Assembly: GCA_017381395.1 (NCBI GenBank) | Contig: JAFOCH010000095.1 | Coordinates: 1 to 29,889, forward strand | Source of the DNA: Clostridia bacterium | GTDB taxonomy: Bacteria; Bacillota; Clostridia; Oscillospirales; Acutalibacteraceae | Reading direction: 5' to 3' | Length of the DNA: 29,889 bases | In this document: piece after piece, positions 2 to 24,188 of the stretch | Position numbering within the stretch: the stretch's first letter is position 1 | Layout: the number at the start of each line of letters is the position of its first letter | The notes under the pieces: model-generated | Told to the model about the DNA's origin: nothing | Seen by the model: the letters and a program-made list of their open reading frames with translations, nothing else | Database searches by the model: none | Program-made: the position numbers and the translations under genes

Positions 2-820
2 TTTTGCCAGGTGTGCGGAAGTGCCGAGTTCATTACCAATAATGTTCCTACAAATCAACCTGTTTATAATCAAAACCAGTACAATCAGCAGCCTACGGTT
101 AATCAGACATGGCAACCCCCTGTTCCTCAAAATCAACCCAAGAAAAAGAAAACTGGGTTGATTATTGGTATTGTTGCAGCTGTATTAATTGTTCTTGCAA
201 TAATTGGTATGGTTGCTGAAAAGGTATTCCAAGAGCAGGGATACGGTGATAACACCGGTAATAATGGTGATTTTAGCTATAATATTGGTGAATCGGGTGG
301 CACAACAAATAATAGCTCACAGGAAACGCCTGAAAAACTGTACTATTCTAAGGGCACTTTTGATGGCTCGGTTTATGAAAACAAATGGGCAGATATCAAA
401 TTTACATTGCCTGAGGGATTCTCTGACGCTGATTCATCAACATATATGGCGGCTGAAAATTCAAACACTGAGTGTGGTATGTACTTCATGGCTGATGATA
501 CAATGGGCTTGATATATATTTGCTATGAAAAACTTCCTACTTTCCCAGTATATGATGAAGAAGAATATCTTGATTCTGCAATGAAATCTTTACAGAATGT
601 ATCGGGTGTCACATATAAAATTCCTGATACATATTCTACTGCGACCATCGGTGGCTACGCTTATGCAAAAGCAGAATGTGAATTTAATAACGGCAACGGT
701 GATTTCGCCAATACTTTTTATACCAGAAAACTTGATAATTATATGATTGTCATTTCTGCAATCGGTGTCAATTCCGAATATAATGATGCTTTGGTAGCTA
801 ATATAACAACTGCTAAATAA
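2..820 (+). CDS. Zinc-ribbon / single-TM membrane protein with extracellular domain (5'-truncated by the window edge); paralogue of 20465-21424
   Basis: The frame is open from base 2 (FCQVCGS, a CxxC half of a zinc ribbon). It has a Q/P/N-rich linker, KKKK plus one TM (TGLIIGIVAAVLIVLAIIG) and then AEKVFQEQGYGD, as in the paralogue. Stop TAA at 818-820. Confidence 0.85.
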   Translation, partial: FCQVCGSAEFITNNVPTNQPVYNQNQYNQQPTVNQTWQPPVPQNQPKKKKTGLIIGIVAAVLIVLAIIGMVAEKVFQEQGYGDNTGNNGDFSYNIGESGGTTNNSSQETPEKLYYSKGTFDGSVYENKWADIKFTLPEGFSDADSSTYMAAENSNTECGMYFMADDTMGLIYICYEKLPTFPVYDEEEYLDSAMKSLQNVSGVTYKIPDTYSTATIGGYAYAKAECEFNNGNGDFANTFYTRKLDNYMIVISAIGVNSEYNDALVANITTAK

Positions 821-831
821 GGAGAAGGATT

Positions 832-1857
832 ATGGCACGTTATATAAAAGATTTTCAAATAAATGTAGATCCTCAGACTGCCCACTCTGCAGTTAATCAA
901 TATCTACAAAAAGAAGGATATGAATACATTAATTATGATGGGGAAAATGTATTCAAAAAAGGCCAGGGAGTATGGTCAAACCCAACTTTTTTTAAATTTT
1001 CATACGCTGGCCATGTGGTAAGAATGGAAACTTGGATGAAGTACGCATTCTTTCCAGGCGTTTATGTCGGAGAATTAGGTGTAACGGGATTTGTTGGTAG
1101 TGCGATGAAAGGACCTTGGAAAAAGAGAATCGCTTATTTGGAAAATGTTCTTTCAAGTATGGCAGCACAAACAACCTACTATCCTCCAACCTCTGTTCAA
1201 AATACAGCTGCTACATTTGAGGATAATGAAACTCAACTTCTCAATGAAAATGATGTGTTTGAGGAAACTTGTGTTTTGTCAGAAAATAAAGCAGAAGTTC
1301 CTTCTGAGGTTGTTGCTTTCTGCATAAGTTGTGGAGCGCAGTTGCCTTCTGGGACGTTATTTTGTTCTGTTTGCGGTCAAAAGAGGGATAATGTTACCCC
1401 CACCCAATCGGGTAATTCATACGTTCAGGAAGAACCTCAGCCTCAGCCGCAATATACTAACCCCTTCGATGCTCAAGCAACTGCCGCATATCCGCCCGCA
1501 GGTCAGTATGTTAGCAGAAAAGAATTTATTGAAAAATATGTGCAGCCGTCTTTACGTAAAAACATAAAAAGCATTTCGATTCTGTGCTATGTTTGTGCAG
1601 GCCTTACATTCTTGATGTCGATTGCAGTTAATCCTTATGGAATTATTGATGCTCTCGTACTGTTAGGATTCGCTCTTGGGATGCACATTGCAAAAAGCAG
1701 AGTCTGTGCAATTCTAATCCTTATTTTAAGCATATTGGAAGTTATCTTATCACTCATTGTCGGAGCATTCCCGTTCTGGTGGTTAATTGCTGGTATTTCT
1801 GCTGTAATTACTTTTAATAAGATCGAGAAACAGTATAAAGAGTTTTTGAAGAGATAA
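832..1857 (+). CDS. Membrane protein: unassigned N-terminal domain, acidic Thr-containing linker, double zinc ribbon, ~4-TM C-terminal domain
   Basis: RBS AAGGAGAAGG precedes the ATG. Contains FCISCG-x8-FCSVCG. The C-terminal ~110 aa closely match the C-terminus of 21563-22243. Confidence 0.9.
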   Translation: MARYIKDFQINVDPQTAHSAVNQYLQKEGYEYINYDGENVFKKGQGVWSNPTFFKFSYAGHVVRMETWMKYAFFPGVYVGELGVTGFVGSAMKGPWKKRIAYLENVLSSMAAQTTYYPPTSVQNTAATFEDNETQLLNENDVFEETCVLSENKAEVPSEVVAFCISCGAQLPSGTLFCSVCGQKRDNVTPTQSGNSYVQEEPQPQPQYTNPFDAQATAAYPPAGQYVSRKEFIEKYVQPSLRKNIKSISILCYVCAGLTFLMSIAVNPYGIIDALVLLGFALGMHIAKSRVCAILILILSILEVILSLIVGAFPFWWLIAGISAVITFNKIEKQYKEFLKR

Positions 1858-1997
1858 AGAATATAAGGAAAACGGTTGTTTTATCTTTATAACGTAGGAT
1901 TGTTTTGCACGTTAATAATAACACTGTACAAAATTGTTTTAATGTAGGTTCTACGGTAAATAATGTTAGAAAATTGGTTAAAAGGGGCAAAACTTAG

Positions 1998-3698
1998 ATG
2001 AAAAGAATAATTAGTTTATCCATTACCATCACATTGCTTTTGACGATGCTATTGTCATTTTCTGGCTGTAGTCCAAAGGCTAGTGAATGATTAGAATTTT
2101 CTTCTAATGGTGATGGGACATGTAAATGGACTGGCATAGGAACATGTGTTGATACAGAAATTATCGTTCCAGAAAAGAATGGTGATGAAACAGTTGTTAG
2201 TGTTGCAAGCAACACACTCAATTTTGAGATCGACACTGTAGTAACAAAAGTTGTGTTACCTAAAACAATAAAGACAATCGAAAAAGATGCTTTTGATAGA
2301 TTGCGTAGCTTAGTTGAAATTAAATTGAACGAAGGTCTTGAAAGCATTGGTGAAAACGCTTTTTATGGTTGTGAGGCGTTAGAGTCAATTACTTTTCCTT
2401 CGACACTAAAATCTATTGGTGAGTGGGCTTTTTGCGAATGCAAATTATTAACAGAAATTGTTTTGCCTGAAGGATTCGAAGAACTTGGAAAATTTTCTTT
2501 CAGTGATTGTACTGCCATTAAAAAGATTTCTATTCCTTCAACCTTGAACAAACTTCATTTTATATCGGCAGATGGTGGAAATTGCGGTTATGAATTTGAT
2601 ACAACAAGTATTGAAGAATTTACTTTTGCAGGCGACTGGAAATATACTACTCTCGACATGGGAATGAGTGATGAAGGCAAAATTTATTTTTACGGTTCGT
2701 TAGCTAGAGACATTTCTAACGAGGAGTATCCGGGAACTTTTGAAGAGATAACAGAAAAGAATAAAGAATCCATTATTTGCGCTTTGTTAAATAAACAGTC
2801 TTTGAAAATCAATGATAAGAATTGCTCTATTACAAGTGAAAAACCAACAGGAATTTATGAGGTCCCTGGTATGTGGGGATTTACTTTGCAGGAATTTACG
2901 AAAGATAACAAATTAAATGTTTCTTATGAACAAATGATGGGCGGCGTCGTAAAGGATGTTGTGTCAAACGAATATACTTATGACGAGGAACTAAAGGCAT
3001 ATACATTTTCTCAAAGTACAACTCTTGAGGGTCAAAGTATTACAATAGAGAAAATCTTTGTAAACTTTGGTGATTTCGTTTTCTCTGTTGATTATTCTAA
3101 AATTGACAGCAGTGAAGATGCATCAATACATAAATGGATTCCTTACAGCGAAACCATTAAAGAATACATTGAAGAAGATGTTGAACTCGAAGAAGAAAAA
3201 GTTGAAGAAATTGTTGAGAAGAAGGACAACTTGTTGAATGATCTTATTGAAGCATTTAAAGCTGCTGGTATAAAAGTTAATGTTGATGAAACGACCGGTG
3301 AACTTGCATTACACTCGTCTGTATTGTTCGGCGGAGACTCGGCTGTTTTGACTGCTGAAGGTAAAACTTTCTTGAATAAGTTTGTTGATGTTTATACTTC
3401 TATTGTTTTCTCTGATAAGTATGCAGGTTTTGTTTCAAAAACTATGATAGAAGGACATACTGCTCCGGTATCCGGTAGCACCTATGAAAGTGGATTGCCG
3501 TTGTCAGAGCAGAGAGCTAACAATGTTAAAAATTATTGCGTTTCTTCTGAGACGGGTGTAGACACAAGCAAACTTGCTGCTAATTTGGAGGCAACAGGAC
3601 TTTCTAACAGTAAGCCGGTTTATGATAATAGTGGTAAAGTTGATATGGCGGCATGCCGTCGCGTTTCCTTTAGATTTATTGTTAATTTAGATAAGTAG
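1998..3698 (+). pseudogene. Lipoprotein with BspA-type LRR (LRR_5) region and C-terminal OmpA/MotB-like domain, interrupted by an in-frame TGA at 2088-2090
   Basis: ATG 1998 gives signal peptide MKRIISLSITITLLLTMLLSFSG-C (lipobox), then SPKASE*LEFSSNGDGTC, continuing in frame into ORF 2253-3698. LRR repeats: LPKTIKTIEKDAF, LNEGLESIGENAF, FPSTLKSIGEWAF. OmpA-like motifs: EGHT, LSEQRA, RRVSF. Confidence 0.85.
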
Positions 3699-3718
3699 GG
3701 ATTACTATGTTTAATGCT

Positions 3719-3755
3719 GAATATATGTCGCCATCGTAAGAGGCGACATATATTT
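3719..3755 (+). terminator. Intrinsic terminator-like hairpin
   Basis: AAATATATGTCGCC-N9-GGCGACATATATTT, ~20 nt after the stop at 3698. Confidence 0.75.
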
Positions 3756-4088: not shown

Positions 4089-4354
4089 CACCCAACCCCG
4101 TCTCTTTCCACTTGTTTCGTGGTCAGGGGCGGGGTCAAAAGTTGTTGCGAGCCCTGAAAACGTGTTGAAATAAGGGCTTTTTGCACAAAGGGGTTAGTTC
4201 TCCAAAACCGTGTGCCGTGGGGCGCGTCGGTGAGCGCCGCAAAAAGCGGATTGAGCGAGCCGAAAGCGGGTGCCGCGGTCGAAATTCGCCGAGCGAAAGG
4301 GAGGATGAGCGAATTTCGGGCACCGCAAACGGGCGAGTCCTTCTGCCCCTGCCA
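4089..4354 (+). repeat. 266-bp direct repeat copy A (putative att junction: left arm + tRNA-Trp 3' half with insert)
   Basis: Aligns without gaps to 19840-20105 with 17 mismatches (manual count). Contains TCGTGGTCAGGGGCGGGGTCAAAA. Confidence 0.95.
4199..4354 (+). pseudogene. 3' half of tRNA-Trp(CCA), T-loop interrupted by a 112-nt insert (4222-4333)
   Basis: T-CTCCAAA-ACCGT-GTGCC-GTGGG [insert] CGAGT-CCTTC-TGCCCCT-G-CCA matches canonical positions 31-76 with anticodon CCA at 4202-4204. There is no D-arm or 5' anticodon stem. Confidence 0.85.
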
Positions 4355-4355: not shown

Positions 4356-4395
4356 GAAAACACCGTAATTGTGATATCACAATTACGGTGCTTTC
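4356..4395 (+). terminator. Perfect hairpin directly after the tRNA CCA end
   Basis: CACCGTAATTGTGA-TA-TCACAATTACGGTG. Shares the AAAACACCG...CGGTG frame with the hairpins at ~6614 and ~20108. Confidence 0.6.
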
Positions 4396-4396
4396 A

Positions 4397-4563
4397 GCTA
4401 TATTCGCCTTCGGCGAGCTATATTGGCTGCGCCAGTTATATTTGCTTCGCAAGTGATATTGGGCTTTGCCCAGTTTTGGAGGCGAATATAATATCACTGC
4501 TGCGCAGCAGCAATATAACTTTCACGCAGTGAAAATATCACTCCGGCAAAGCCGGAATATAAC
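4397..4563. repeat. Branched palindromic (REP/BIME-like) array
   Basis: Four G(C/T)(T/G)ATATT octamers (4397, 4417, 4435, 4453), each followed by a short GC hairpin. Four inverted AATAT(C/A)AC octamers (4490, 4512, 4534, 4556) are separated by hairpins. Confidence 0.8.
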
Positions 4564-4567
4564 TTTA

Positions 4568-4603
4568 AATGCCCAGCCAGGATTGTTTTCCCGGTTGGGC
4601 ATT
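4568..4603. terminator. Hairpin, possible terminator for the minus-strand genes
   Basis: AATGCCCAGCC-N14-GGTTGGGCATT. Confidence 0.5.
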
Positions 4604-4720
4604 CTGCGTTTTAAGACCCGTTTTCCATAACAAATCGTTAGAATTATGGGGGTATCGGGTTTGTGAGGTAATCATTAGAATTGTGGGTAATCGTTGGATT
4701 TATGAGAAACAATATCACAA

Positions 4721-4742
4721 ACACACAGAACCGTCCCCTGTG
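4721..4742 (+). repeat. 22-bp inverted repeat, left copy
   Basis: ACACACAGAACCGTCCCCTGTG; its reverse complement matches 6459-6480 at 21/22. It is itself a hairpin (ACACAG/CTGTGT). Confidence 0.85.
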
Positions 4743-4784: not shown

Positions 4785-5438
4785 TTATCTGCCAATCATC
4801 TTTTTATATTTGGCTTCATTCTCTGAGGAGTATCTTAAAAGCAATTCCGTATCACTTCTTTTTTGCAATTCCACAATAGCACTTTTTAGGATGGCATCGT
4901 ATCTTCGGTTATGGCATTCGATTCCTGAATAGCTAATGATTCCGTCGTTTTTTGTACCAAGTTTAATGGATGCATAACCCTTATAGGTTGAAGTATAGAT
5001 CCAATAAATTTCATTGCACGGTATTGGCAATCTCTTAAAGTTTTTGGGGAACAGGTATTTATCCGACAATATTGCCTTATCTCCGAACTCAACTACTTTG
5101 CTGGTCTCTAAGTCAAAGATCATTTCTCTTATTGTATCGGTTCTTTCAAGCTCTTTTATTCTTTTAAACAATTTGATGATGCGTGGCAATCTGATTAATG
5201 CATAAAGGCCAGGATATACGCAAAGGAAAGCAACAGAACCCAATACTATATACAGCCAATAAATTAACAGGGACTCTTCGCCGGTAAAGCCCATAGCAAC
5301 AAGTATGGCACAGATTAAGAGCATGGTAGCTAACGTTACCAGCATAAAAACGGACACAATTTTACCACGTATGATTTTTGCTTTGAATTTTCTTACTTTT
5401 TTATTTAGTTCTTTACTCGTGATCTCAGTTTTATTCAT
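4785..5438 (-). CDS. Hypothetical membrane protein (2 N-terminal TMs + soluble domain; DUF6709-like by appearance)
   Basis: 217-aa ORF with RBS GGAG before the ATG, two hydrophobic segments, and 15 nt spacing from the upstream gene. The family call is by eye only. Confidence 0.75.
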   Translation of the reverse strand: MNKTEITSKELNKKVRKFKAKIIRGKIVSVFMLVTLATMLLICAILVAMGFTGEESLLIYWLYIVLGSVAFLCVYPGLYALIRLPRIIKLFKRIKELERTDTIREMIFDLETSKVVEFGDKAILSDKYLFPKNFKRLPIPCNEIYWIYTSTYKGYASIKLGTKNDGIISYSGIECHNRRYDAILKSAIVELQKRSDTELLLRYSSENEAKYKKMIGR

Positions 5439-5453: not shown

Positions 5454-6263
5454 TTATTTCTTGCTAAGCTGGCATTCTATTTCTATCCCTGCTTCTGTGT
5501 TTATCCTTTTGATGTACCGGAGCATCCTTTTGCACGGCATAAGATTATACGTTAGGATTGCTAAGTTAAGATAATCCGGGTCGTTTTTTATCGCCTCGTC
5601 TATATGGTTTTTCTTTATGTATTTTTTAACATCAAGAAAAGGACAGATCATTTTCATTAAAAGCAGCGGAATTGCAATGATAAGAAGCGCAATGATCGTT
5701 ACTTTGTTCCACATTTTTTGAATGATGGAAAAGGCAATATACATCGCTATAATACTACCAGGTCCAGGTCCATCCAGAAAACGCACAAAGCTATTCGGTC
5801 TGTAATTATCAATAATTTCTTTTATCGTGAAACCTTTTGTTGACTTTTTCTTCGCTTTTTTCTCAGGTGCTATTGATTTTACGCTGGGATCTACTGAAAC
5901 AGTCTTAACAGTAAATACGATCAGATCGCATTTATCCTCATCTGTTTTTTTGAAAATCTTTTCGTTTTCTTCGATATTATTGGGAACAAGAACCGCAATA
6001 TTCTTGCCTAATTCTTTTATATAAACATTGTTGATTGTACTTTCTTTCGTTTTTTTCGAAACAACTGCATCAAATTCTACATATAAACTACGCTTGTTCT
6101 CATCAAAAAATTCATTTGTAGATTGTTTTACAACTTCAAGATCATCACGACTGTTATCAACACGCTTACCGGCATCTTGTGATATCGGACAGCCACAGTG
6201 TACACACGCATTTGCTCTATCGGATATTTCTCTGCCACATTCCTCACATTTAATTAAAGCCAT
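5454..6263 (-). CDS. Zinc-ribbon domain membrane protein
   Basis: N-terminus MALIKCEECGREISDRANACVHCGCPI, RBS GGAGG, two TM segments in the C-terminal third. Confidence 0.85.
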   Translation of the reverse strand: MALIKCEECGREISDRANACVHCGCPISQDAGKRVDNSRDDLEVVKQSTNEFFDENKRSLYVEFDAVVSKKTKESTINNVYIKELGKNIAVLVPNNIEENEKIFKKTDEDKCDLIVFTVKTVSVDPSVKSIAPEKKAKKKSTKGFTIKEIIDNYRPNSFVRFLDGPGPGSIIAMYIAFSIIQKMWNKVTIIALLIIAIPLLLMKMICPFLDVKKYIKKNHIDEAIKNDPDYLNLAILTYNLMPCKRMLRYIKRINTEAGIEIECQLSKK

Positions 6264-6458: not shown

Positions 6459-6480
6459 CACAGGGGACGGTTCTATGTGT
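6459..6480 (-). repeat. 22-bp inverted repeat, right copy
   Basis: CACAGGGGACGGTTCTATGTGT, the inverse of 4721-4742 with 1 mismatch. Confidence 0.85.
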
Positions 6481-6501
6481 TAATTGGCATAAAAACAACC
6501 A

Positions 6502-7165: not shown

Positions 7166-7726
7166 GTGTTTAGGGGATTAAGAATAGTGGAAAAAGATTC
7201 AAAGAAAAAGTACAGTTTTTTTAAATCGGCTTTATTTAGGTCGACCTTAAAAATAGTTATTATCGTAATAGTAACCGCGTCGCTTCTTTTGAATTTGTTT
7301 ACCTTTATTATGCCGGTTGTCAAGTACTATGGTACGAGCATGTCGCCCATGTTAGAGGACGGACAAATTTTGATTGTAAATAAAATATCGGACATTGAGA
7401 GCGGAGATATCATAGCGTTCTATTATAATAATAAGGTATTGGTGCGGCGAGTTGTCGCAACGGGAAACGAGCAAGTATCCATTGATGTTTTCGGCACGGT
7501 TTCGGTTAACGGAAAGGAATTGGACGAGCCATACGTTGAAAACAAGACATTGGGACAGTGTAATTTGAATTTTCCGTACAATATACCTTCGGGAGCGTTT
7601 TTCGTTCTGGGGGATAACAGGGATTCTGCAATGGACAGTCGGTTAGAAGAAATAGGTGTAGTAACCGATGACCGACTGATTGGAAAGGTAGTTTTTTCGA
7701 TAAAACCGTTTGGGTTAATAGATTAA
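7166..7726 (+). CDS. Pilus-associated signal peptidase I-like (S26) protein, probably catalytically impaired
   Basis: GTG start with GAAGG RBS, one TM, GTSMSP (catalytic Ser), GDIIAF, FFVLGDNRDSAMDSR. The box D Lys position reads VLVRRV instead of xxKRV. Confidence 0.9.
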   Translation: MFRGLRIVEKDSKKKYSFFKSALFRSTLKIVIIVIVTASLLLNLFTFIMPVVKYYGTSMSPMLEDGQILIVNKISDIESGDIIAFYYNNKVLVRRVVATGNEQVSIDVFGTVSVNGKELDEPYVENKTLGQCNLNFPYNIPSGAFFVLGDNRDSAMDSRLEEIGVVTDDRLIGKVVFSIKPFGLID

Positions 7727-7754
7727 AATTTTTTAAGTAGAGAGTGGAACAACA

Positions 7755-11240: not shown

Positions 11241-11289
11241 TACGCTTTCAATAAATTTGAAAAAATATAACAGAAAAGGAGTTAAAACA

Positions 11290-13002: not shown

Positions 13003-13106
13003 AAGAAATAATTGTTTTTGACGGAATGATGCTTATTTTAGTTGACCTAAAAAGCTGTTTCTTTTTCTAAATTTTAAATAAGATAAATTAAAGGAGGGAA
13101 AAATCG

Positions 13107-13967: not shown

Positions 13968-14838
13968 AAACATAGTTATCTTTATTTTATCGGCAGTGTT
14001 TGTTATTGCCTTGGCTTTGCCTTGTCTTGCGGCTACGGAAAGCGGAAGCATAACCGTAACTTTAGAGGATAATAGTAAAAATAAAATTAACGGTATAACG
14101 GTACATCTTTGTCAAATAGCGGAGCTTAATAATTCAGGATATTACCCCACCTCGTCGTTTGAAAGCTCCGGCATATCCATTTCGGGCATTGTGAATGGTC
14201 CTGACGACCTGACTGCAAAAGCTGTTGTGGATTATATTGAGGACAATGAGATAGACTCGCTGTCATCCGTGTCAGAAAACGGAAAGGTGTCTTTTTCAAA
14301 TTTGGATTTGGGCATTTGGGTTGTGTTTTGCGAGCAGGATGGCAAATATATCTTTAATCCGTATATTGTTTTTTTGCCCTACGAATCGGAAGGTAAACTA
14401 TTCTACGACGTAGCATCCATACCAAAGACGGAGGATAGCAAACCTGATGAAATCAGCATTTATGTTATAAAAAGATGGGACGACAATAATAATGCTGCAA
14501 AAAAGCGTCCCGAGTCGGTTGTTGTTGAGCTGTTGAACGGGAATAAAGCGGTGTCTTCGGTTGAGCTTAGCGAGTCAAATGGATGGACTCATACGTTTAC
14601 TTGTGTTGCAAAGAATGGCAAGTATTCTGTCAGAGAAAAAAGCGTAAAGGACTATAAAGCGACATATAGCGGGGATGTAGCTAATGGCTTTGCGGTAACA
14701 AATTCATACGTTGGAGAAAAGCTTCCGCAAACGGGTCAGTATTGGTGGCCGATTGTTATTATGGCTATTGCCGGCTTCTGCTTCGTTTTACTCGGCATCT
14801 ATGAGATTGGAGTAAAGAAACATGACAAGAAGAAGTAA
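13951..14838 (+). CDS. Minor pilin with Cna-B domain
   Basis: Signal peptide, VIKRWDD....RPESVVVELL (Cna-B), then LPQTG + TM + KK. Confidence 0.9.
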   Translation: MKLTIKNIVIFILSAVFVIALALPCLAATESGSITVTLEDNSKNKINGITVHLCQIAELNNSGYYPTSSFESSGISISGIVNGPDDLTAKAVVDYIEDNEIDSLSSVSENGKVSFSNLDLGIWVVFCEQDGKYIFNPYIVFLPYESEGKLFYDVASIPKTEDSKPDEISIYVIKRWDDNNNAAKKRPESVVVELLNGNKAVSSVELSESNGWTHTFTCVAKNGKYSVREKSVKDYKATYSGDVANGFAVTNSYVGEKLPQTGQYWWPIVIMAIAGFCFVLLGIYEIGVKKHDKKK

Positions 14839-15394
14839 AGGCATCATCCTTCTGATTGTTGGATGTGTTCTGCTTCTAAGCTCAGGCGGTTGGTACATTT
14901 ATAACGTTCAGGAGGACAAAAACGCAGGGCGTCAAGCAACTGAAATACTCGGTAAATTAGACAACGAGCAAAATATAATTGATAATAGCGATACCGCTCC
15001 TGTGATTACCGTAGATGGTGATGCTTTCTGTGGCAAGGTTGTTATTGAAAAGCTGGGCGTGGAGCTTCCGGTGTATGATGAATGGAATTATACTCGATTA
15101 AGGTCAGCACCCTGTCGTTATATGGGAAGCGTTGCTACGGATGATATCATTATCGCGGCGCATAATTATAAGAGTCATTTCGGTTCGCTTAACAAGTTGC
15201 AGACGGGCGATGAAATTCGATTTATAGACGCTTATGGAACAGCGCACACCTATTCGGTATGTGAGCTTGTCACTTTAAACGGAACAGATATTTCAGAGAT
15301 GCAGTCAAGTGGATGGGATTTTACGCTTTTCACCTGCACAAAGGGCGGCAAGCAGCGCGTTACCGTGAGATGTAATAGAACCCAAAACCGTTAA
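14822..15394 (+). CDS. Second, shorter sortase (no C-terminal TM)
   Basis: N-terminal TM, IAAHNY, TLFTCT....QRVTVRC catalytic His/Cys/Arg. Overlaps the minor pilin stop. Confidence 0.92.
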   Translation: MTRRSKGIILLIVGCVLLLSSGGWYIYNVQEDKNAGRQATEILGKLDNEQNIIDNSDTAPVITVDGDAFCGKVVIEKLGVELPVYDEWNYTRLRSAPCRYMGSVATDDIIIAAHNYKSHFGSLNKLQTGDEIRFIDAYGTAHTYSVCELVTLNGTDISEMQSSGWDFTLFTCTKGGKQRVTVRCNRTQNR

Positions 15395-15553: not shown

Positions 15554-18500
15554 TTATGCCTTTCCGAGCAGGAGCATTTGGAGCAATACGATGTCGGCGC
15601 TGTCGATAATTTCGTTGCCGTTGTAGTCGGTATAAACGAAATTGTCATTGCCGACAGAATCTATATCCAACAAATACTGTTGCATCACAAGCAGGTCGCT
15701 GGTATCTATCTTTTTATCGAGGTTTACGTCACCAACATTATAAACTGTGGCTATTTCGGTTTCGCCGACGTATTCGGTGCCGTTAAAGGTGGCATAAACC
15801 GTTGCCTTGATATCGGTGTTAACATGAGTGTCGTCGATTTTTGCATTGAATACGTAGTATTCGTCAACCTTTTCATAATCGGTAATTGTGCTTTGCGCTC
15901 CGTTAATATCGATTACCAGATAGGGAGCATCATAACCGCTATTCTCGATTTGTTCAGCGCTTAGTTTGAAATCAACCGATTTTTCGCCATGCACCTTGGC
16001 GGTTGATTCATAAATTCGCAGATAATCAAATTCACCGCTTTTGACAGTATCGCCGCAGTTTTCACACCATATTTCATATTTACCGCTGAGTATTTCTGTC
16101 GGTTGTGAATAGACGGATAACCTATCCGAAGACGTATGAACAAGCGAATAGTTTGCTCCGCTTAAAATAGCTGCATAAAACACCTCTACGTTTTCGCATG
16201 AGGAAACAACCGTCGCATTTTGACACAGTATAAAGGCGTTTTCGGCGGCAGAGGTGATGCTGTCGGGTACCGTAATATCGGTAACGTCGTCATCGCACGA
16301 AAAATATTCGTCAATGCTGGTTACGGCTATGCCGTCGATTTCGGTGGGGATTTCTATACTTGTGTTTTCGCCATAATATCCCGTAACGCATACACTGTCG
16401 TTATCGTTATAAATATATCCCCAGTCACCCTTTGCACGAGTGTAAGCCGCAACAATATAACCTGCGCCAACATAACTGATTTGAGGTGTATAGCCGATGC
16501 TCAAAACACCGCTTTCGTCGGTTTGCGCCTGAACTAAATATAGGAGATTGCCCGATTCAAGCGGATTTTCGACCGTTTTCGATTTAACCGCATAGAAATT
16601 GTACAGATATTTGGGTTTGAGACCCGTGACCGAAACTCCGCTATCGTCAACCGTGACGTTGTCATCGTTTGCGAATGAATGTGTGCTATACGATGCTAAC
16701 GAGGTTGCTCCCGGCAAAGTGATTCTTTCGGGCATATCTTTGTTTGCAGTTGAGCCGAGACCAAGCTGTCCGTATTTATTATATCCCCAGGTGTATAGCT
16801 TGTGGTCCTTTGTAATTGCCGCACTGTGGCTGTTGCCGAGACTGACTGACGCCACGTTTTCATAAATAATCACGGGAACATATTGAACTTGTGTTGAGCC
16901 GTTTCCTATTTTTCCTGCGGTATTACTTCCCCAAAGGTACAGTTCGCCATTTTTTGTAACTGCGGAAGCGAAATAGCCACCGAGACTAACTGATGCTATG
17001 CTGCTCATAATGTGTGTAGGAGAGTTTCTTTGGGTAGTGGTGCCGTCACCAAGCTGACCGAGATAATTATCTCCCCAAGTATAAAGTTTACCATCCTTTG
17101 TAACTGCGGCGCTGTGATAATCACCCATACTTATAGAAGCAACGTTACTCATAATATATTTAGGAGTAGTTCTTTTGGTAGTAGTTCCGTCGCCGAGCTG
17201 ACCGCTGCTATTAAGTCCCCATATATATAATTTACCGTCTTTTTTAATAGCGGCGCTGTGATAAAGACCAAGACTAACTGATGCAACGTTACTCATCAAA
17301 AATTTCGGCTTTGTGCTTCTGGTGGTAGTGCCGTCGCCAAGTTGTCCGTTGATATTATATCCCCAAACGTACAGATTGCCGTCCTTTGTAATAGCGGCGC
17401 TATGCTCGAAACCGAGCTCAACTGATGCAACGTTGCTCATAACGTGTCTTGGCGAGTATCTGTTATATCTTGTGCCGTCTCCGACCTGTCCTTCGTCATT
17501 TCGTCCCCAAGTATAAAGTTTGCCATCCTTTGTAATAGCGGCACTGTGGTAATCACCCATATTGATTGAGGCAACGTTGTCCATAATGTATGTAGGAATA
17601 TTTCGTTGTGTAGTAGTGCCGTCGCCAAGCTGGCCGTAATCGTTGGCACCCCATGTGTATAGCTTGCCGTCTCGAGTTATAGCGGCACTGTGGTCGGTGC
17701 CGAGACTTACTGCGGCAAATTCATATTGAGCGTTAATGAGGGAACTTTCACTTTCTATTGAAATGTCAATTTCTCTGGCTTTGTCCTTGATTTTATAGGT
17801 TTTTTCAAGAGAGATATATCCCTTTTTGGTTACCGTAACGGTGTATTTTCCGTTTTTGAGATATACCGCTTCGATTTTTCCGTCCTTGTCGGTGGTTTTT
17901 GTAATATCCTCGCTGCTTGACGAAATTTTTACCGAAGCACCTTGGACAACATCTTTGCCTTCTAATACGTTGACGATAAAGGAGTAGCTGATATATGGGC
18001 AGGTGCCGAAGCCGAACTCATCATGGTCGAATGAATAATAAAAATCACGCAACTTAATCTTTTTGTCCATGACAGTAAGCTTAAAGGTGAGTTTTTTGAG
18101 ATTTAGGAATTTTGCTTCGAATGACAATGATGCTCTTGCCGAAAAGTCGCCGTCAACGCAGCTTTTACATTCGTGCTTTTCGCTTGTTGGCTTGTCGGAA
18201 GTATAGCGGAGAGTGCCTTTTATTTCTGCGCCGAATCGGCCTGACATTTTGGCTTGTGCTACTTTTTTGCTGACTATTGCAATCGACGGTTCGAGAGAAA
18301 TGCCGATAAATACAGTAGCTTCTACCTTAAACTGACATTCAAATTTAGGCGTCGACGAGGTGTTTTTTATCTTTTTTGTATCTGTCGATGCCTTAAATCC
18401 AAATTGTCCTTTCAGTTCACCGCTTACACTAACCTCACCGCTTAATTCTAAAATAAACGAGGGGGTAAACGAGATATATACGCCGGGGCAAACAGCAATT

Positions 18501-19678
18501 GCTATATAACCCAGCGGAATTTTTGCAGCAATCGAGCCACTGACCTTTATTTCTACTCCGAAGGAATATTCTAATTTCACCTCAACAGTCGAGTATTTCA
18601 GACTCACGTACACGTCCATTGAAGCTTTTATTGTAAACATGGCTTCGCCGTTGAGTGTAACCTTTTTCGAATCGGTCGAAATGAATTCTTTTTCGGCAAA
18701 GGTGTATGATGCGGATATACTTTTTGACTTGCTTATATCAGCCAGCGCAAAGGTTGACGGCCCCTCGAAAGCACCGTTATATTCAATGCCTTCTTCGAGC
18801 CCGGAAGGGTCAATTTCTGTGTTTTCAAAGGTGGTGCCACCCTCGATTCGAACATAGTCGAATACCTCGTCGAGCGATGTTTCATCACCAACGATGGTGG
18901 CGGTTGTGCCGTCGATTGAGATGCTTTTTACCTTTACGATTATGAGGTCGCCATTAGCCGCCTCAAAGGCAAGTATTTCACCTTCGGTCAGCGATAAAAT
19001 GTCACTGTCCGCATTTTCAAAAACGTATGTATCGGAAGCAGCATCCTCGGTTACCTGAATCGAGTTCGAATCATCGCTGACGATGTTTACTTCGTCATTA
19101 TAAACCGCGTAGTTGGTTGTATCACTGTCGTCAAAGTTAACCACTCGGTCCTGGTCAAAGTCGGCGGATGTCTTTGATAAAAACTCCTGCATTTCCTTTG
19201 TATATAACGAATTTATGTATGCGGTGCAAAGGGGTTTCAGGTCCTCGGTTTTGACCAAATATGCTCCTGCAACAAAGTATTGCGGCATATCCTCGTCGGC
19301 TATTTCGATTTCGGCACTGCTTTCGTCGGGCGAAACCTGGGTCGAGCCGTAGGCAAGTATATTTTCGCCCAGCTCATCGTACAAGCAAACCACGAGCGTA
19401 CACGAATCAAGTGCTTCATACTCGACGGTTACAAAGTTGTCCTCAACGTTTATCGAAAATACGTTATAGCCGTTGCCGTCGAGCTGCTTTTGCATCTCGT
19501 CGCCTATTGTTTGTGTTAATAAATCGCCGAAGGAATTGGTCGATTCGATGGTCAAATCGCTGTCACCGGTGGTGGTTGAATCTGCACCGGCAGTTTCCTC
19601 GGCATGAGCGTTTATCGGCATGATAAATGTGGTTGCCAACAATGTTAATATTAGGATGATGGAAATTATTTTTTTCAT
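15554..19678 (-). CDS. Secreted 1374-aa protein: acidic N-terminal domains, carboxypeptidase-regulatory-like Ig domain, 7 RCC1 repeats, short LRR cap, C-terminal dockerin
   Basis: Signal peptide MKKIISIILILTLLATTFIMPINAHA. Seven 48-aa repeats (HSAAITKDGKLYTWGxNxxGQLGDG) at ~16712-17710. Duplicated Ca-binding loops GDVNLDKKIDTSD...DYNGNEIIDSAD at the C-terminus. Confidence 0.93.
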   Translation of the reverse strand: MKKIISIILILTLLATTFIMPINAHAEETAGADSTTTGDSDLTIESTNSFGDLLTQTIGDEMQKQLDGNGYNVFSINVEDNFVTVEYEALDSCTLVVCLYDELGENILAYGSTQVSPDESSAEIEIADEDMPQYFVAGAYLVKTEDLKPLCTAYINSLYTKEMQEFLSKTSADFDQDRVVNFDDSDTTNYAVYNDEVNIVSDDSNSIQVTEDAASDTYVFENADSDILSLTEGEILAFEAANGDLIIVKVKSISIDGTTATIVGDETSLDEVFDYVRIEGGTTFENTEIDPSGLEEGIEYNGAFEGPSTFALADISKSKSISASYTFAEKEFISTDSKKVTLNGEAMFTIKASMDVYVSLKYSTVEVKLEYSFGVEIKVSGSIAAKIPLGYIAIAVCPGVYISFTPSFILELSGEVSVSGELKGQFGFKASTDTKKIKNTSSTPKFECQFKVEATVFIGISLEPSIAIVSKKVAQAKMSGRFGAEIKGTLRYTSDKPTSEKHECKSCVDGDFSARASLSFEAKFLNLKKLTFKLTVMDKKIKLRDFYYSFDHDEFGFGTCPYISYSFIVNVLEGKDVVQGASVKISSSSEDITKTTDKDGKIEAVYLKNGKYTVTVTKKGYISLEKTYKIKDKAREIDISIESESSLINAQYEFAAVSLGTDHSAAITRDGKLYTWGANDYGQLGDGTTTQRNIPTYIMDNVASINMGDYHSAAITKDGKLYTWGRNDEGQVGDGTRYNRYSPRHVMSNVASVELGFEHSAAITKDGNLYVWGYNINGQLGDGTTTRSTKPKFLMSNVASVSLGLYHSAAIKKDGKLYIWGLNSSGQLGDGTTTKRTTPKYIMSNVASISMGDYHSAAVTKDGKLYTWGDNYLGQLGDGTTTQRNSPTHIMSSIASVSLGGYFASAVTKNGELYLWGSNTAGKIGNGSTQVQYVPVIIYENVASVSLGNSHSAAITKDHKLYTWGYNKYGQLGLGSTANKDMPERITLPGATSLASYSTHSFANDDNVTVDDSGVSVTGLKPKYLYNFYAVKSKTVENPLESGNLLYLVQAQTDESGVLSIGYTPQISYVGAGYIVAAYTRAKGDWGYIYNDNDSVCVTGYYGENTSIEIPTEIDGIAVTSIDEYFSCDDDVTDITVPDSITSAAENAFILCQNATVVSSCENVEVFYAAILSGANYSLVHTSSDRLSVYSQPTEILSGKYEIWCENCGDTVKSGEFDYLRIYESTAKVHGEKSVDFKLSAEQIENSGYDAPYLVIDINGAQSTITDYEKVDEYYVFNAKIDDTHVNTDIKATVYATFNGTEYVGETEIATVYNVGDVNLDKKIDTSDLLVMQQYLLDIDSVGNDNFVYTDYNGNEIIDSADIVLLQMLLLGKA

Positions 19679-19839: not shown

Positions 19840-20105
19840 CACCCAACCCCGTCTCTTTCCACATTTTTCGTGGTCAGGGGCGGGGTCAAAAGATGTTGCG
19901 AGCCCTGAAAAGGCGATGAAATAAGGACTTTTTGCACAAAGGGGTTAGTTCTCCAAAACCGTGTGCCGAGGGGCGCGTTGGCGAGCGCCGCGAAAAGCGG
20001 ATTGAGCGAGGCAAAAGCGGGTGCCGCGGTAGAAATTCGCCGAGCGAAAGGGAGAAAAAGCGAATTTCGGGCACCGCAAACGGGCGAGTCCTTCTGCCCC
20101 TGCCA
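19840..20105 (+). repeat. 266-bp direct repeat copy B (putative att junction)
   Basis: See copy A. Confidence 0.95.
19950..20105 (+). pseudogene. 3' half of tRNA-Trp(CCA), T-loop interrupted by a 112-nt insert (19973-20084)
   Basis: Anticodon CCA at 19953-19955. The T-stem GAGGG/CCTTC pairs fully (one G.U); 3' acceptor strand TGCCCCT-G-CCA. Confidence 0.85.
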
Positions 20106-20280: not shown

Positions 20281-20309
20281 TTGACATAGGTGTCATATAA
20301 TGATATAAT
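20281..20309 (+). promoter_or_regulatory. Consensus sigma-A promoter with overlapping palindrome
   Basis: TTGACA-N17-TATAAT with TGn extension; TGACA-N4-TGTCA at 20282-20295. Confidence 0.85.
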
Positions 20310-20464
20310 ATATTATTAAATTATTGTTTCTATAACTATTTTTTGTTAGAATATATTTTATAATAATAAGGTGTTTGGAATATAGGTAAAAAAATTCAAA
20401 ACAACGAGTAGTTAAGTATGAATTTTAATAAAAACAAACCATTATTTTCGAGGAGATGGGCGTT

Positions 20465-21424
20465 ATGAGCGAAGGCAAGACAAGGTTCTGTGTAAACTGT
20501 GGCGAAGAATTGTCAGAGGAGCTTGTTTTTTGTACCAACTGCGGTCAAAAACAACCTGAAATTGTCGCAAAACCGGTAAACAACGCACAAGCCGCTAACC
20601 AGAGCCAGCCGACCGCAAATCATCCGATTATAAATCAGCCAGTACCTTCTCAAACTCAATATAGTCAGCCGCAGCCGACTGTAAATCAATCCTTTCAGCC
20701 GCCGGTTCAACAAACTCCGCCAAATAAAAAGAAAACAGGGCTGATAGTTGGCATTATAATAGCGTCTGTTATTCTGCTTTCAGGAATCGGAGTTATTGCG
20801 GAAAAGGTGTTTCAGGAGCAGGGATACGGTGATGACGATTATGATACGGATACATATTCCAGCTATGATTATGATGACGATTATTATTGTGATGACACCT
20901 ATTCGTATGACGTGGACAATTATGTATCAGAAGCAAGCTCTGACAGTACGACTCAAAACACTAAATATTCAAAAGGTGCTGTTGTCGGGAACAGTTATGT
21001 AAATAGTTGGGCAGGTATAATGATTACGCTGCCAAGTGATTATTCAAACGCGGATGCGGATACCTACGCATCTATGGAAAACAGTGCCACCGATTGCGGA
21101 GCATATTTCACATCTGACAGTAGTATAATTTATATTCTCTACGAAAAAACGATATATGGTGAAGAAGCTTATCTCGATATAGTAATGAACATTCTTGATT
21201 CTAAAACCGATGTGAACTATGAGACAGCGAGTGTTTATGCAACCGCAAATATAGCCGGATATGCCTATTCAAAGGCGGAGTGCAAATTCACTAACGCTTA
21301 TGGCGATTTTGTCCAAAGTATATATGTTAGAAAGATTGACGATCGTATGGCTGTGATTTCTGTGCTCGGAGTTTCCGGCAGCGCTAATGATTCTCTTGTC
21401 CGTTCGATCAAAAGTGCCGGCTGA
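20465..21424 (+). CDS. Double zinc-ribbon, single-TM membrane protein; paralogue of 2-820
   Basis: AGGAG sits directly against ATG 20456, so ATG 20465 is the likelier start. FCVNCG-x8-FCTNCG, Q/P linker, KKK + TM, D/Y-rich tract. Confidence 0.9.
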   Translation: MSEGKTRFCVNCGEELSEELVFCTNCGQKQPEIVAKPVNNAQAANQSQPTANHPIINQPVPSQTQYSQPQPTVNQSFQPPVQQTPPNKKKTGLIVGIIIASVILLSGIGVIAEKVFQEQGYGDDDYDTDTYSSYDYDDDYYCDDTYSYDVDNYVSEASSDSTTQNTKYSKGAVVGNSYVNSWAGIMITLPSDYSNADADTYASMENSATDCGAYFTSDSSIIYILYEKTIYGEEAYLDIVMNILDSKTDVNYETASVYATANIAGYAYSKAECKFTNAYGDFVQSIYVRKIDDRMAVISVLGVSGSANDSLVRSIKSAG

Positions 21425-21562
21425 GAGAATGCTTAGGTGATCTGATATAGTTTTTGGCTTAATAAGTAAATATTTCTGCGCAGAAGCTGAATGGATAATC
21501 GGTAGCTACGCAGAATATTTCAAATAAAAATTAAACAATAAATTTTGAGGAGACAGGTATTT

Positions 21563-22243
21563 ATGAGTGAATTTAAGTTCTGTTACAGTTGCGGCGAGAG
21601 ATTGCCCCAGGAAACTATTTTTTGCACCAACTGCGGACAAAGACAGCAGGAGGTTGTCGCTGCCCCGGTAAACACCATTCCCCCGATGGACAACGTTCCC
21701 CCGATGAATAACGTTTCTCCGGTAAACAACGTTTCCCCGATGAATAACGTTTCTCCGGTAAACAACGTTTCCCCGATGAATAACGTTCCTCCGGTGAATA
21801 ACGTTCCTCCGGTGAATAACATCCCTCCGGTGAATAACATCCCTCCGGTGAACAATTTCAATCCTGTTCAGGCAGCTCCTATGGGCACATCTATTAGCCG
21901 AAAGGATTTTATTGACAATTACGTTGATGCTTCATTAAGAAAAAATATCAATATCATAGCGATTATTTGCTATATCTGCGCAGGATTGACATTTGTTGTT
22001 TCCTGCATGATGAATCCGCTTGGAATCATTGATGCGCTTGTTTTGCTTGGATTCACCTTGGGCATGCATATCGGAAAGAGCAGAGGATGTGCAATCGGTA
22101 TTTTCGTTTTAAGCATAGTCGAAGTAGTTTTATCACTAATTGTTGGAGCATTCCCTGTTTGGTGGTTGGTTGCCGGCATTTGGGCACTGATAACCTTTAA
22201 CAAGATTGAAAAGGAATATAAATCTTTTAACATGTACAGATAA
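21563..22243 (+). CDS. Double zinc-ribbon protein with PVNNVP repeats and ~4-TM C-terminal domain
   Basis: RBS GAGGAG/AGG before ATG 21563, FCYSCG-x8-FCTNCG; the C-terminus is paralogous to that of 832-1857. Confidence 0.9.
   Translation: MSEFKFCYSCGERLPQETIFCTNCGQRQQEVVAAPVNTIPPMDNVPPMNNVSPVNNVSPMNNVSPVNNVSPMNNVPPVNNVPPVNNIPPVNNIPPVNNFNPVQAAPMGTSISRKDFIDNYVDASLRKNINIIAIICYICAGLTFVVSCMMNPLGIIDALVLLGFTLGMHIGKSRGCAIGIFVLSIVEVVLSLIVGAFPVWWLVAGIWALITFNKIEKEYKSFNMYR
21665..21862 (+). repeat. In-frame 18-bp tandem repeat, 11 units
   Basis: CCG(G/A)T(A/G)AAYAAY(G/A)TYYCY encoding P(V/M)NN(V/I)(P/S). Confidence 0.95.
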
Positions 22244-22286
22244 AAAGGTTAAAATATAAATAAAATTCGAAAGGGTTGTTTTAAAA

Positions 22287-24188
22287 ATGAAAAAACTTTT
22301 ATCATTATTGTTATTGGCGGCGTTAATCGTTACAATGTTCGTCGGTTGTGGAGAAGATGAAGCAGCTGGCAACGCACAAAACGGAGCAGTTAAAACCGGC
22401 ACTTTCTCGGAATACTTGGTAGTTGAAAAGGTTGGTACCATAAACAAAGAAAGCTTTTTCACCGCTGCAGGCGGACTTTATTACAAGGAAAATGATGCTT
22501 GGGGCATTATGTCGCTTAACGGTGCGCGTGATACCGGTGCTATTTATTCAAGCATAAGCACAACAGGAAATTATTTTATTGCCCGTACGAGAGAGTTTTC
22601 CAACTTCAACGATATTGCAGGATTAAATTCAGCATCGCTTGTTGACGGAAAAGGAAAAACCTATATATCGGGATATGCGGCTTATTATGAACTCAATGAA
22701 CGTTATGTAAAGGTTGTCAAGGTAACCGAGCGTACATATTCTGAGGATGATCTTGTTGCCAGTGCTACTGAAAATGGCCTCTGCTTTACCGGTAAGTTTG
22801 GCGATGATGCTTGGTATAAGGGTAACTGGTATGTATTTGATACAGTTACAGAAACTTTTGTTCCCGGTGCTACCGGTACAGCGGATACCTTTGTAAGTGC
22901 AAATGGAAGATATGTACAGTTCAGTGATGCAAACAACAATTCAATCAAAATCAATGAAAAGGGTGAACCTTTGCCCGAGAATTCAAGATTGTTTGATGAC
23001 GGCTCGTACAAGGTAGAAACCAAAATCGGTGAGATGTACGATGCAGACGGCAATTTATTGTTTAACTATGATTTGACCGGATTTGTACCTTCATCTTATG
23101 AAAACGGATACTATTCCGCCAGCAAATATGAAGATGGAGAATCAAAGTATGTTGTTATGGATAGAAAGGGAAATATTATTTCCTCAGAATTTGACGAGTA
23201 TTTTACCATCTACGGCGAAATTGTTGCATGCGATGGCAAGATTTATAATTTAGAGGGTAAAAACATCATTGATGGAACATACGATTCGGTATATTTTGAT
23301 AAAGTGTTCAATCAAAACTGGCTGCTTAGAAAGGATAAGCAGTACACCATGATTGATAAAAATGGTGCAGTGTATTTTACCGGCAGTTATAAAGGTGATT
23401 ATACTATTTGGACAAGTGAATTCTTAGCATCAAAGAAGACAAAGGATGGTACTTATTACTATTCTCACAAGGATAAGGATTATACCATTGAGGGTTATGG
23501 CTTTGCTCCGTGGATAGTAAAGACTTCAAACAGCAATTCGTTGTACAATCTGGTAGATACCATGACAGGTAAGACCCTGTTAGAAGGATATAAGAGCTAT
23601 GATAGCGTTTCGAGACGTTCCTTGGCTTACTACGTATATGCAAAGTATAATGGCGGAACCGACGTATATTTGGTAGTTTCCGGCGCACAGCTCAAGGATG
23701 TTGTTACTAAAAAGGCCAATTTGTTTGACGACCTTATCGCAGCATTCGAGACCGAAGGTATTGCAGTAACGGTTAACAAGGAAAATGGCGAAATTGCGCT
23801 TGACTCGTCTGTATTGTTTGGTGGCGATTCTGCCGAGCTTACCGCCAGCGGAAAGACCTTCCTTAACAAGTTTATAAAGGCATACACAACCGTTGCCTTC
23901 TCGGAAAAATACGAGGGCTTTATTTCAAAAACAATGGTTGAAGGACATACAGCTCCTGTAAAGGGAAGCACCTATGCCAGCGGATTGCAGCTTTCTGAAG
24001 AAAGAGCATTGAACGTAAAGAACTATTGTCTTTCTGCGGAAACAGGCGTAGATGTTTCAAAAATTAGCAAGTCATTGGAGAATGTCGGCTATTCAAACAG
24101 CCAGCCGGTTTATGATAAGGACGGAAAGGTTAATATGGCCGCTTCTCGTCGAGTATCCTTCAGATTTATTGTTAACGTAGATTTCTAA
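22287..24188 (+). CDS. Lipoprotein with beta-rich repeat region (WG-repeat-like) and C-terminal OmpA/MotB-like domain
   Basis: Lipobox MFVG-C, aromatic/Gly beta repeats (YGEIVACDGKIYNLEGKNII). The C-terminal ~155 aa are highly similar to the C-terminus of 1998-3698. Confidence 0.9.
   Translation: MKKLLSLLLLAALIVTMFVGCGEDEAAGNAQNGAVKTGTFSEYLVVEKVGTINKESFFTAAGGLYYKENDAWGIMSLNGARDTGAIYSSISTTGNYFIARTREFSNFNDIAGLNSASLVDGKGKTYISGYAAYYELNERYVKVVKVTERTYSEDDLVASATENGLCFTGKFGDDAWYKGNWYVFDTVTETFVPGATGTADTFVSANGRYVQFSDANNNSIKINEKGEPLPENSRLFDDGSYKVETKIGEMYDADGNLLFNYDLTGFVPSSYENGYYSASKYEDGESKYVVMDRKGNIISSEFDEYFTIYGEIVACDGKIYNLEGKNIIDGTYDSVYFDKVFNQNWLLRKDKQYTMIDKNGAVYFTGSYKGDYTIWTSEFLASKKTKDGTYYYSHKDKDYTIEGYGFAPWIVKTSNSNSLYNLVDTMTGKTLLEGYKSYDSVSRRSLAYYVYAKYNGGTDVYLVVSGAQLKDVVTKKANLFDDLIAAFETEGIAVTVNKENGEIALDSSVLFGGDSAELTASGKTFLNKFIKAYTTVAFSEKYEGFISKTMVEGHTAPVKGSTYASGLQLSEERALNVKNYCLSAETGVDVSKISKSLENVGYSNSQPVYDKDGKVNMAASRRVSFRFIVNVDF

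Follow-up and report, generated by a model that had tools for sequence, protein, structure and literature searches.

A duplicated three-gene envelope cassette in a Clostridia bacterium, tentatively assigned to a T7SSf-like type VII secretion locus

A contig from a Clostridia bacterium of the family Acutalibacteraceae (GenBank assembly GCA_017381395.1, contig JAFOCH010000095.1), analysed over its whole length of 29,889 nucleotides (nt) and referred to below as the window, carries two co-oriented sets of the same three genes, cassette A (2-3698) and cassette B (20456-24188). The genes encode a zinc-ribbon protein with one transmembrane (TM) segment and an ectodomain (g1), a zinc-ribbon protein with a four-helix TM bundle (g2) and a lipoprotein with a MotB/OmpA-like C-terminus (g3). 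Our favoured reading, held tentatively and at a little under even probability, is that this cassette is a lineage-specific envelope module of a type VII secretion system (T7SS) locus of T7SSf-like type, feeding a control of the T7SS by kinase, PP2C phosphatase and FHA proteins, and is not an autonomous system. The metagenome-assembled genome (MAG) that includes the window is a 1.24-Mb assembly, 74% complete and of 43.6% G+C, in which these two copies of the cassette were found and no third. The contig starts inside the first gene of cassette A, g1a, so that the region 5′ of this gene falls outside the window.

The surroundings of the cassette become visible in related loci. L063, a contig from another sample that encodes a g2a identical to that of the window, is 99.87% identical to the window over 11.9 kb. 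Its upstream part encodes a TadZ/ParA-like (AAA_31) ATPase, YukD, an EssC-type FtsK_SpoIIIE ATPase of 1489 amino acids (aa) with a faint Pfam match to FHA, a YwqH-like protein and a 92-aa protein; it continues with an 818-aa LXG protein, DUF4176 and WXG100, directly followed by g1a, g2a, g3a and the same downstream genes as in the window. In L020/L021 the order is EssC, three WXG100 genes, g1, g2, g3, a 496-aa gene, a zinc-ribbon-DUF805 gene, a kinase with a double zinc ribbon (DZR) and PP2C, and L013 keeps this order up to the kinase. Two DUF6382-FHA proteins and a ParA/TadZ-like (CbiA/AAA_31) ATPase are also encoded upstream in L011/L062, and in genome G076 WXG100 genes share the cassette contig while an EssC fragment lies on another. 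T7SS genes are at or near the cassette in at least seven of the eight distinct cassette loci.

Most of these neighbours have counterparts among the components listed for T7SSf, namely WXG100 (TsfA), a YukD-like protein (TsfB), an FHA-bearing FtsK-type ATPase (TsfC), a PPM phosphatase (TsfF), a DUF6382 and FHA protein with two TM helices (TsfJ) and a TadZ-like ATPase (TsfV) (Garrett, Higginson & Palmer 2024, Microlife 5:uqae013, PMC11217815). The paper describes kinases, phosphatases and FHA proteins as frequent in novel T7SS clusters and proposes phospho-regulation; it found no kinase for T7SSf, of which few membrane parts are known. The neighbourhood of the cassette is a T7SSf-like type VII secretion locus, and not a textbook member, since a kinase is present. 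The initial annotation, made from the letters of the window, did not recognise a named system. This stands for the three cassette genes, which the paper does not describe (the words 'zinc' and 'OmpA' do not occur in its text), and fails for the neighbourhood.

In the window, the kinase and phosphatase follow cassette B on the forward strand. The first gene after g3b (24262-24807) encodes a 181-aa zinc-ribbon membrane protein, at a position that is held in relatives by the zinc-ribbon-DUF805 gene. It is followed by a soluble Hanks Ser/Thr kinase (24931-26421), whose linker is acidic (EATGVV, EGTMVL) and whose C-terminus is a double zinc ribbon, and by a PP2C (PPM) phosphatase (26441-27160; Pfam PP2C_2, E = 1.4e-12), the counterpart of TsfF in T7SSf loci, whose position is also occupied in L020/L021. 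The kinase with double zinc ribbon lies beside PP2C in both the window and L020, and is also present in L013; it has neither a TM segment nor a sensor domain of its own. Spacing is tight from g3b to the PP2C gene, with no terminator-like site between the two. About 150 nt 5′ of g1b there is a sigma-70 consensus (20281-20309, forward strand; TTGACA, 17 nt, TATAAT), which matches at 12 of 12 positions and has an extended -10 TG, as a consensus match only. The link between cassette and kinase/PP2C pair that was proposed in the initial annotation recurs in relatives. In the window's organism, the ancestral block appears to have been split, leaving cassette A with the T7SS core and cassette B with the zinc-ribbon gene, the kinase and PP2C.

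Gene 2, the kinase and an FHA protein share a rare acidic threonine motif. Scanned as [DENQ][DEGTAQ]T-x-[VIL]-L, the motif is found at two sites in g2a and at one in the kinase (EGTMVL), to which a looser scan adds EATGVV. The motif is kept in g2 homologues down to 37-42% identity, immediately before the zinc ribbon, and is present in some g1 proteins. Its background in the MAG is 20 matches in 314,308 aa (0.064 per 1000 aa), g2a being the sole open reading frame (ORF) with two. FHA domains commonly prefer pT-x-x-(I/L/V). Both DUF6382-FHA proteins retain the S-R-x-H and N-G signatures of FHA domains, and the one encoded at L062:6031-7713 has two ETTVL motifs right before its own FHA domain, an arrangement that hints at intramolecular or chain-forming phospho-Thr/FHA contacts.

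From the distribution of the motif and the preference of FHA domains, we infer a scheme of writer, eraser, reader and membrane substrate. The products of g1, with its PsbP/DcrB-like ectodomain, and g3, with a variable head and a MotB-like wall-binding domain, would face the cell wall, while g2, through its four-TM part, and g1 would present zinc ribbons and disordered linkers to the cytoplasm, possibly as parts of one complex. A complex prediction for the four-TM part of g2a with the TM segment and ectodomain of g1a scored 0.00, which is silent for or against binding. The soluble kinase, having no sensor of its own, would act on the membrane proteins and may phosphorylate acidic Thr-x-x-Leu motifs in g2, in some g1 proteins and in its own linker. 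Candidate target residues in g2a are Thr133 (NETQLL) and Thr146 (EETCVL). The FHA domains of the T7SS, in the DUF6382-FHA proteins and EssC, would bind and read these marks and PP2C would erase them, and envelope cues could thereby gate assembly or firing of the T7SS. A bolder form of this proposal is conceivable, though on balance doubtful. Here the cassette, the zinc-ribbon/DUF805 protein and the double-zinc-ribbon kinase together would be the missing sensory input of T7SSf-type systems, a trans-envelope receptor made up of zinc-ribbon membrane proteins and a wall-bound lipoprotein with swappable heads, whose acidic Thr-x-x-Leu phospho-marks are read by the FHA domains of the machine, and whose sensing is diversified by duplication and gene-sized recombination.

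Several observations weigh against an envelope module of the T7SS. The window contains no T7SS gene, and searches of the MAG with EssC, WXG100, YukD, DUF6382-FHA and TadZ-like queries found none, the sole near-exception being a weak TadZ/ParA-type match on another contig (27.5% identity, E = 5e-7). As the MAG is incomplete and the contig begins inside g1a, this result is not equivalent to absence; the T7SS link rests on the near-identical contig from another sample. The threonine motif was defined only after being seen, cassette B does not carry it, and g3a is interrupted. The FHA domain of EssC is a weak Pfam match in which no canonical phospho-Thr signature was found. All cassette loci come from a narrow clade, so that synteny could reflect inheritance and not function. 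Finally, 18 distant loci of g1 or g2 type, inspected over some 10 kb to either side as far as the contigs reached, showed no partner, kinase, PP2C, OmpA-like or T7SS gene. The contexts of L025, L026 and L029, which have no T7SS genes nearby, agree with this, apart from g2 and g1 lying as a pair in L026 and a short kinase gene adjoining g2 in L027-L029.

Some of these contexts would also fit kinase-linked envelope sensing apart from secretion, with the cassette products serving as sensor or substrate partners of the soluble kinase and PP2C in general cell-wall homeostasis and the T7SS adjacency being inherited synteny. Kinases lie beside g2 homologues without a visible T7SS gene in L027-L029 and L019, cassette B has its own promoter-like consensus site and runs into the kinase and PP2C genes, and sister species have a related zinc-ribbon-LRR-OmpA protein (LRR, leucine-rich repeat) and no detectable T7SS. 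We nevertheless consider this explanation unlikely. The PPM phosphatase is a listed T7SSf component (PMC11217815), the threonine motif is also carried by the T7SS FHA protein, and T7SS genes adjoin the cassette in nearly all of its distinct loci.

The distribution of the cassette is narrow. Across 150 genera of the same GTDB family, full-length g2 was found besides the MAG in one genome only, G076 (locus L024), which also has g1; genomes of the same genus lack g1 and g2. Of 151 genomes, 12 have DUF6382, and these hardly overlap with the genomes that have g1 or g2. As a family, g2 is small, with about 50 clusters of close relatives (59-98% identity) in 5.8 billion proteins and a few more at 29-42%. 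The full cassette is restricted to a narrow, patchy clade of gut Clostridia, and distant members of its families stand alone. Co-occurrence of the three domains, which the initial annotation had set as a check, is found within this clade and is not general.

Within the window, cassettes A and B are diverged paralogues. g1a (2-820, forward strand) is truncated 5′ where the contig begins; the full-length protein, known from L063, has 289 aa. It comprises a zinc ribbon (cut in the window), a Q/P/N-rich linker, a poly-Lys stretch, one TM segment, the juxtamembrane stretch AEKVFQEQGYGD and the ectodomain. g1b (20456-21424, forward strand) is composed of a zinc ribbon, a linker, a TM segment, an acidic D/Y-rich linker and the ectodomain. 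By BLASTP the two align over 283 aa (45% identity, E = 1e-76), with a conserved TM segment, juxtamembrane stretch and ectodomain and a divergent linker. g2a (832-1857, forward strand) encodes a 112-aa cytoplasmic alpha+beta N-terminal domain, an acidic linker (NETQLL, EETCVL), a zinc ribbon, a further linker and the four-helix TM bundle. In g2b (21545-22243, forward strand; ATG at 21563), which lacks both the N-terminal domain and the acidic Thr linker, their place is taken by 18-nt tandem repeats encoding PVNNVP-like units (21640-21873), with the zinc ribbon before them and the TM bundle after. Conservation between the two (BLASTP, E = 8e-54) covers the zinc ribbon and the four-TM part, the latter being about 70-71% identical. 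The g3 pair shares 67% identity restricted to the last 165 aa (E = 4e-73). Pfam identifies Zn_Ribbon_1 in g1b, g2a and g2b. The ORFs, BLASTP and Pfam bear out the initial annotation in that the three-gene order occurs twice, with extra or unrelated modules as described there; its start for cassette B, 20465, is an internal ATG of g1b.

The g1 ectodomain spans about 165 aa after the variable acidic linker. By sequence it belongs to no Pfam or NCBIfam family, and a profile compared with PDB sequences and Pfam gave nothing significant. Its predicted model (pLDDT 93.8) resembles CyanoP (2xb3; Foldseek E = 1.8e-6, TM-score 0.58-0.64; VIA Z 11.8 over 134 aa, root-mean-square deviation 3.6) and DcrB (6e8a; VIA Z 11.2). 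Further resemblances are to LpqN, the PknH sensor domain and two immunity proteins of the type VI secretion system (T6SS), TplEi (Z 10.2) and Tsi3 (Z 7.9). In the model, the ectodomain has a PsbP/DcrB/Mog1 fold, a likeness at the level of the fold only. Clustering at 50% gives 151 representatives of its family; among the best 150 of these, 92 have a zinc ribbon at the start and 13 are lipoprotein-like.

The two T6SS matches raise the alternative of an immunity or decoy cassette, in which the PsbP/Tsi3-like domain of g1 would neutralise an envelope-acting T7SS effector, g2 and/or g3 would act on others, and the second copy would be an orphan immunity allele directed at variants from competitors. 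The cassette does lie at the effector end of the locus, no further gene of evident immunity type is seen between the LXG gene and g1 in L063, L011 and L014, and the identity of the g1 ectodomain (58-86%) is lower where effectors differ. Moreover, duplication, mosaic recombination, fast divergence of the ectodomain and the presence of a pseudogene are features that conflict loci typically show. However, the cassette stays constant while the effectors vary from LXG proteins (L011, L014, L063) to phospholipase-like and CHAP proteins (L013) and an Mbeg1-like protein (L020), and cytoplasmic zinc ribbons, a conserved cytoplasmic domain and a conserved Thr motif are unexpected in immunity proteins. 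PsbP/DcrB is also a very common envelope fold, and the C-terminus of the LXG protein has no recognisable toxin domain (LXG only in precomputed Pfam, and by eye). A role in immunity is therefore judged decidedly unlikely.

Gene 2 offers few clues from its structure. Its N-terminal domain is a small alpha+beta fold whose best matches are weak (Chk1 KA1, E = 3.8e-3; VIA Z 7.5-10), either KA1-like or generic, and no function follows from them. In predicted-structure libraries it is found beside zinc ribbons in many uncharacterised proteins. The linker of g2a is disordered and carries the conserved T-Q-L-L motif and the second, E-E-T-C-(V/I)-L. At the C-terminus four TM helices form a compact bundle, in which the Asn and the Asp of NPxGIIDAL are invariant. 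No specific fold could be assigned to this bundle, which matched only generic four-helix bundles at Z 9-11, the noise range for helical models. A relationship of the bundle to DUF805 was likewise rejected, as hhalign aligned only the shared N-terminal domain and zinc ribbon and not the TM parts.

Gene 3 combines a variable head with a recognisable wall-binding fold. g3a (1998-3698, forward strand) encodes a lipoprotein signal (1998-2087), a BspA-type LRR region, a middle domain and a MotB/OmpA-like C-terminus; g3b (22287-24188, forward strand) encodes a lipoprotein with a 440-aa beta-rich N-region before the same C-terminus. LRR_5 (PF13306, BspA-type) is found in g3a only (E = 7.1e-29; 100.7 bits against a cut-off of 27.7), and no Pfam family was found for the N-region of g3b or for the other g3 heads. 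The single-cassette relatives L011, L022 and L024 carry a gene 3 orthologous to g3b, with N-regions 54-59% identical. In g3a an in-frame TGA (2088-2090) stands six codons past the lipobox Cys. The same TGA is found in four other assemblies, one of them differing by 14 single-nucleotide polymorphisms over 11.9 kb, so that it is no assembly slip, and g3a is probably a pseudogene. Gene callers in other assemblies begin g3a at an internal GTG (2253), from which the protein would lack a signal peptide.

The OmpA domain (PF00691) scores 38.1 bits in g3a and 37.6 bits in g3b, against a gathering cut-off of 27.2. The last 170 or so aa of g3 match the PADLOC model of ZorB1 (PDLC00609; E = 1.5e-39) at profile positions 45-217, all but its TM helix, and the closest solved sequences are MotB chains. 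In OmpA and MotB proteins, peptidoglycan is contacted by the Asp of GHTD, the Asn before LS and the Arg of LSxxRA. Both g3 copies read GHTAPV...SGL.LSE.RA, in which the Asp and the Asn are replaced and the Arg is kept; aligned to MotB (6ysf), 'DN' is absent and Gly-Leu stands in place of Asn-Trp.

The wall-binding fold would suit a structural or adhesive accessory, in which g3 ties the machine to peptidoglycan (compare TagL/TssL of the T6SS) and its head, with the g1 ectodomain, binds ligands on target cells or matrix for delivery on contact. The BspA-type LRR and the other swapped heads point the same way, and T7SSf has few known membrane parts (PMC11217815). The replaced contact residues speak against it, as do the absence of g3 from L014/L015, the interruption in cassette A, and the lack of any report of the cassette in the Clostridium T7SSf loci covered by PMC11217815. 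We regard this explanation as very unlikely. The ZorB1 and MotB matches, together with the four TM helices of g2 and the invariant Asn and Asp of its NPxGIIDAL segment, could also be taken to indicate a split ion-driven stator of MotAB/ZorAB type, with g2 as channel, g1 as single-TM partner and g3 as a detached peptidoglycan-binding part. Yet g2 has no PADLOC match to ZorA and no Pfam or NCBIfam match to MotA or ExbB, its bundle resembles only generic ones, the g1 TM segment has no acidic residue, and there are no ZorC or ZorD genes, which makes a stator highly implausible. Membership of Zorya was rejected, since the ZorB TM helix is uncovered, g3 is a lipoprotein and no other protein scanned with PADLOC gave a Zor match.

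The surface-facing parts of the cassette are modular. Across relatives, the conserved C-terminus of gene 3 (63-84% identity) is preceded by at least four N-regions that are unrelated to one another. The whole ectodomain of g3a is 63% identical to proteins of 672-682 aa from two genomes of the same genus, in which the lipoprotein signal is replaced by a zinc ribbon, a linker of PVQQ-type repeats and a TM anchor. The zinc-ribbon proteins encoded at L042:8737-10785 and L043:8166-10184, in genomes of the same genus, have as cytoplasmic linkers long PVQQ(E/A)A tandem repeats, analogous to PVNNVP in g2b, and repeat-expanded linkers seem to be a general trait of these zinc-ribbon membrane proteins. 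The N-terminal domain of g2 occurs alone as a 95-aa gene (L014, L019) or fused to a zinc-ribbon-DUF805 protein (L019). Between L063 (9989-10981) and L020, nucleotide identity is 87-99% exactly across g2 and lower outside it (g1 48-82%, g3 about 50%, EssC 67%); the g2 segment is a gene-sized recombination tract. The initial annotation had proposed a conserved membrane and cell-wall core with exchangeable modules, and the g3 heads, the anchor swap, the g2 N-domain fusions and the recombination tract support it.

A further proposal of the initial annotation, that the cassettes are delivered on units bounded by att sites, did not hold. Between the cassettes lie, in order, the tail of g3a, the first copy of a 266-nt repeat, two membrane genes on the minus strand, an operon for a sortase-dependent pilus, a gene for an RCC1/dockerin protein and a second copy of the repeat, which is the only long one. 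Copy 1 (4089-4354) is 3′ of cassette A, outside it, and copy 2 (19840-20105), 94% identical, is 5′ of cassette B, so that the direct repeats flank the pilus island and not the cassettes. No recombinase gene was found in this interval and no tRNA at the repeats (ARAGORN, Rfam), and the repeat is not in the loci of other lineages; one copy lies 3′ of cassette A in each of the near-identical contigs L063-L066. The repeats were accordingly not taken as att sites of a cassette unit. They are G+C-rich, each copy is followed by a hairpin, and within the MAG they are confined to the window contig. Near copy 1 there are two Rfam matches resembling Gut-1 RNA below the cut-off of 50 bits (4395-4464, forward strand, 37.7 bits; 4508-4571, reverse strand, 30.1 bits).

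The remaining genes of the interval are of other kinds. The minus-strand pair, encoding a 3-TM protein (4785-5438) and a zinc-ribbon membrane protein (5454-6263), is enclosed by 23-nt inverted repeats (4720-4742 and 6459-6481) that are 96% complementary. The pilus operon (7166-15394), inserted between the two cassettes, comprises an S26 signal-peptidase-like gene, a 1161-aa SpaA/Cna_B protein, an LPXTG backbone pilin, two sortases and a Cna_B protein, and L063 has the same arrangement as far as it reaches, into the backbone pilin gene. On the reverse strand (15554-19678) a 1374-aa protein is encoded with seven RCC1 repeats, seen in the DNA as a 144-nt periodicity, and a C-terminal type I dockerin.

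The definition of T7SS subtypes c-j dates from 2024 and rests on genomics only. For their membrane parts and regulation, the locus described here supplies candidates that can be tested for a role in controlling the export of toxins by gut Clostridia: a kinase, membrane proteins with a conserved putative phospho-Thr docking motif, and a wall-binding lipoprotein. How the surface-facing parts of such loci diversify can also be seen here, from the gene-sized recombination tract and from the exchange of anchors and heads. The narrow distribution and the purely inferred function limit the claim; were the synteny merely inherited, the finding would shrink to an uncharacterised lineage-specific operon.

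The cassette can be compared with known systems at several levels. The g1 ectodomain is like PsbP/DcrB/Mog1 envelope proteins in whole-domain superposition, and differs from them in its zinc-ribbon/TM anchor and in forming a sequence family of its own (about 150 clusters at 50% identity). With MotB and ZorB, g3 shares the linker helix, the OmpA-like domain and the Arg of LSxxRA; in contrast to them, it is a lipoprotein without plug or TM helix, has a large variable N-terminal domain and two replaced contact residues, and no MotA or ZorA partner is present.

At the level of regulation, the proposed scheme would be similar, in logic only, to TagQRST-PpkA-Fha1-PppA of the Pseudomonas aeruginosa H1-T6SS, where one secretion locus encodes a lipoprotein and membrane or periplasmic sensors together with a Hanks kinase, a phosphatase of PP2C type and a reader with an FHA domain. 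The H1-T6SS is a different secretion machine with no homologous proteins, and the bacterium studied here is monoderm.

The closest counterpart is the T7SSf/e/j group, with which the locus shares WXG100, YukD-like and TadZ/ParA-like proteins, an FtsK-type ATPase with an FHA region, a PPM phosphatase, and LXG-type substrates with small helical partners (Garrett et al., 2024; PMC11217815). No zinc-ribbon, PsbP-like or OmpA-like component is named in that paper, whereas the locus here has all three. The paper found no kinase with T7SSf, and here there is a soluble one with a double zinc ribbon; TsfJ has two TM helices, while the DUF6382-FHA proteins, seen here in the relatives L011/L062, show no TM segment in a hydropathy scan. 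A further difference is that the window's organism has two copies of the cassette, with a pilus island splitting the locus.

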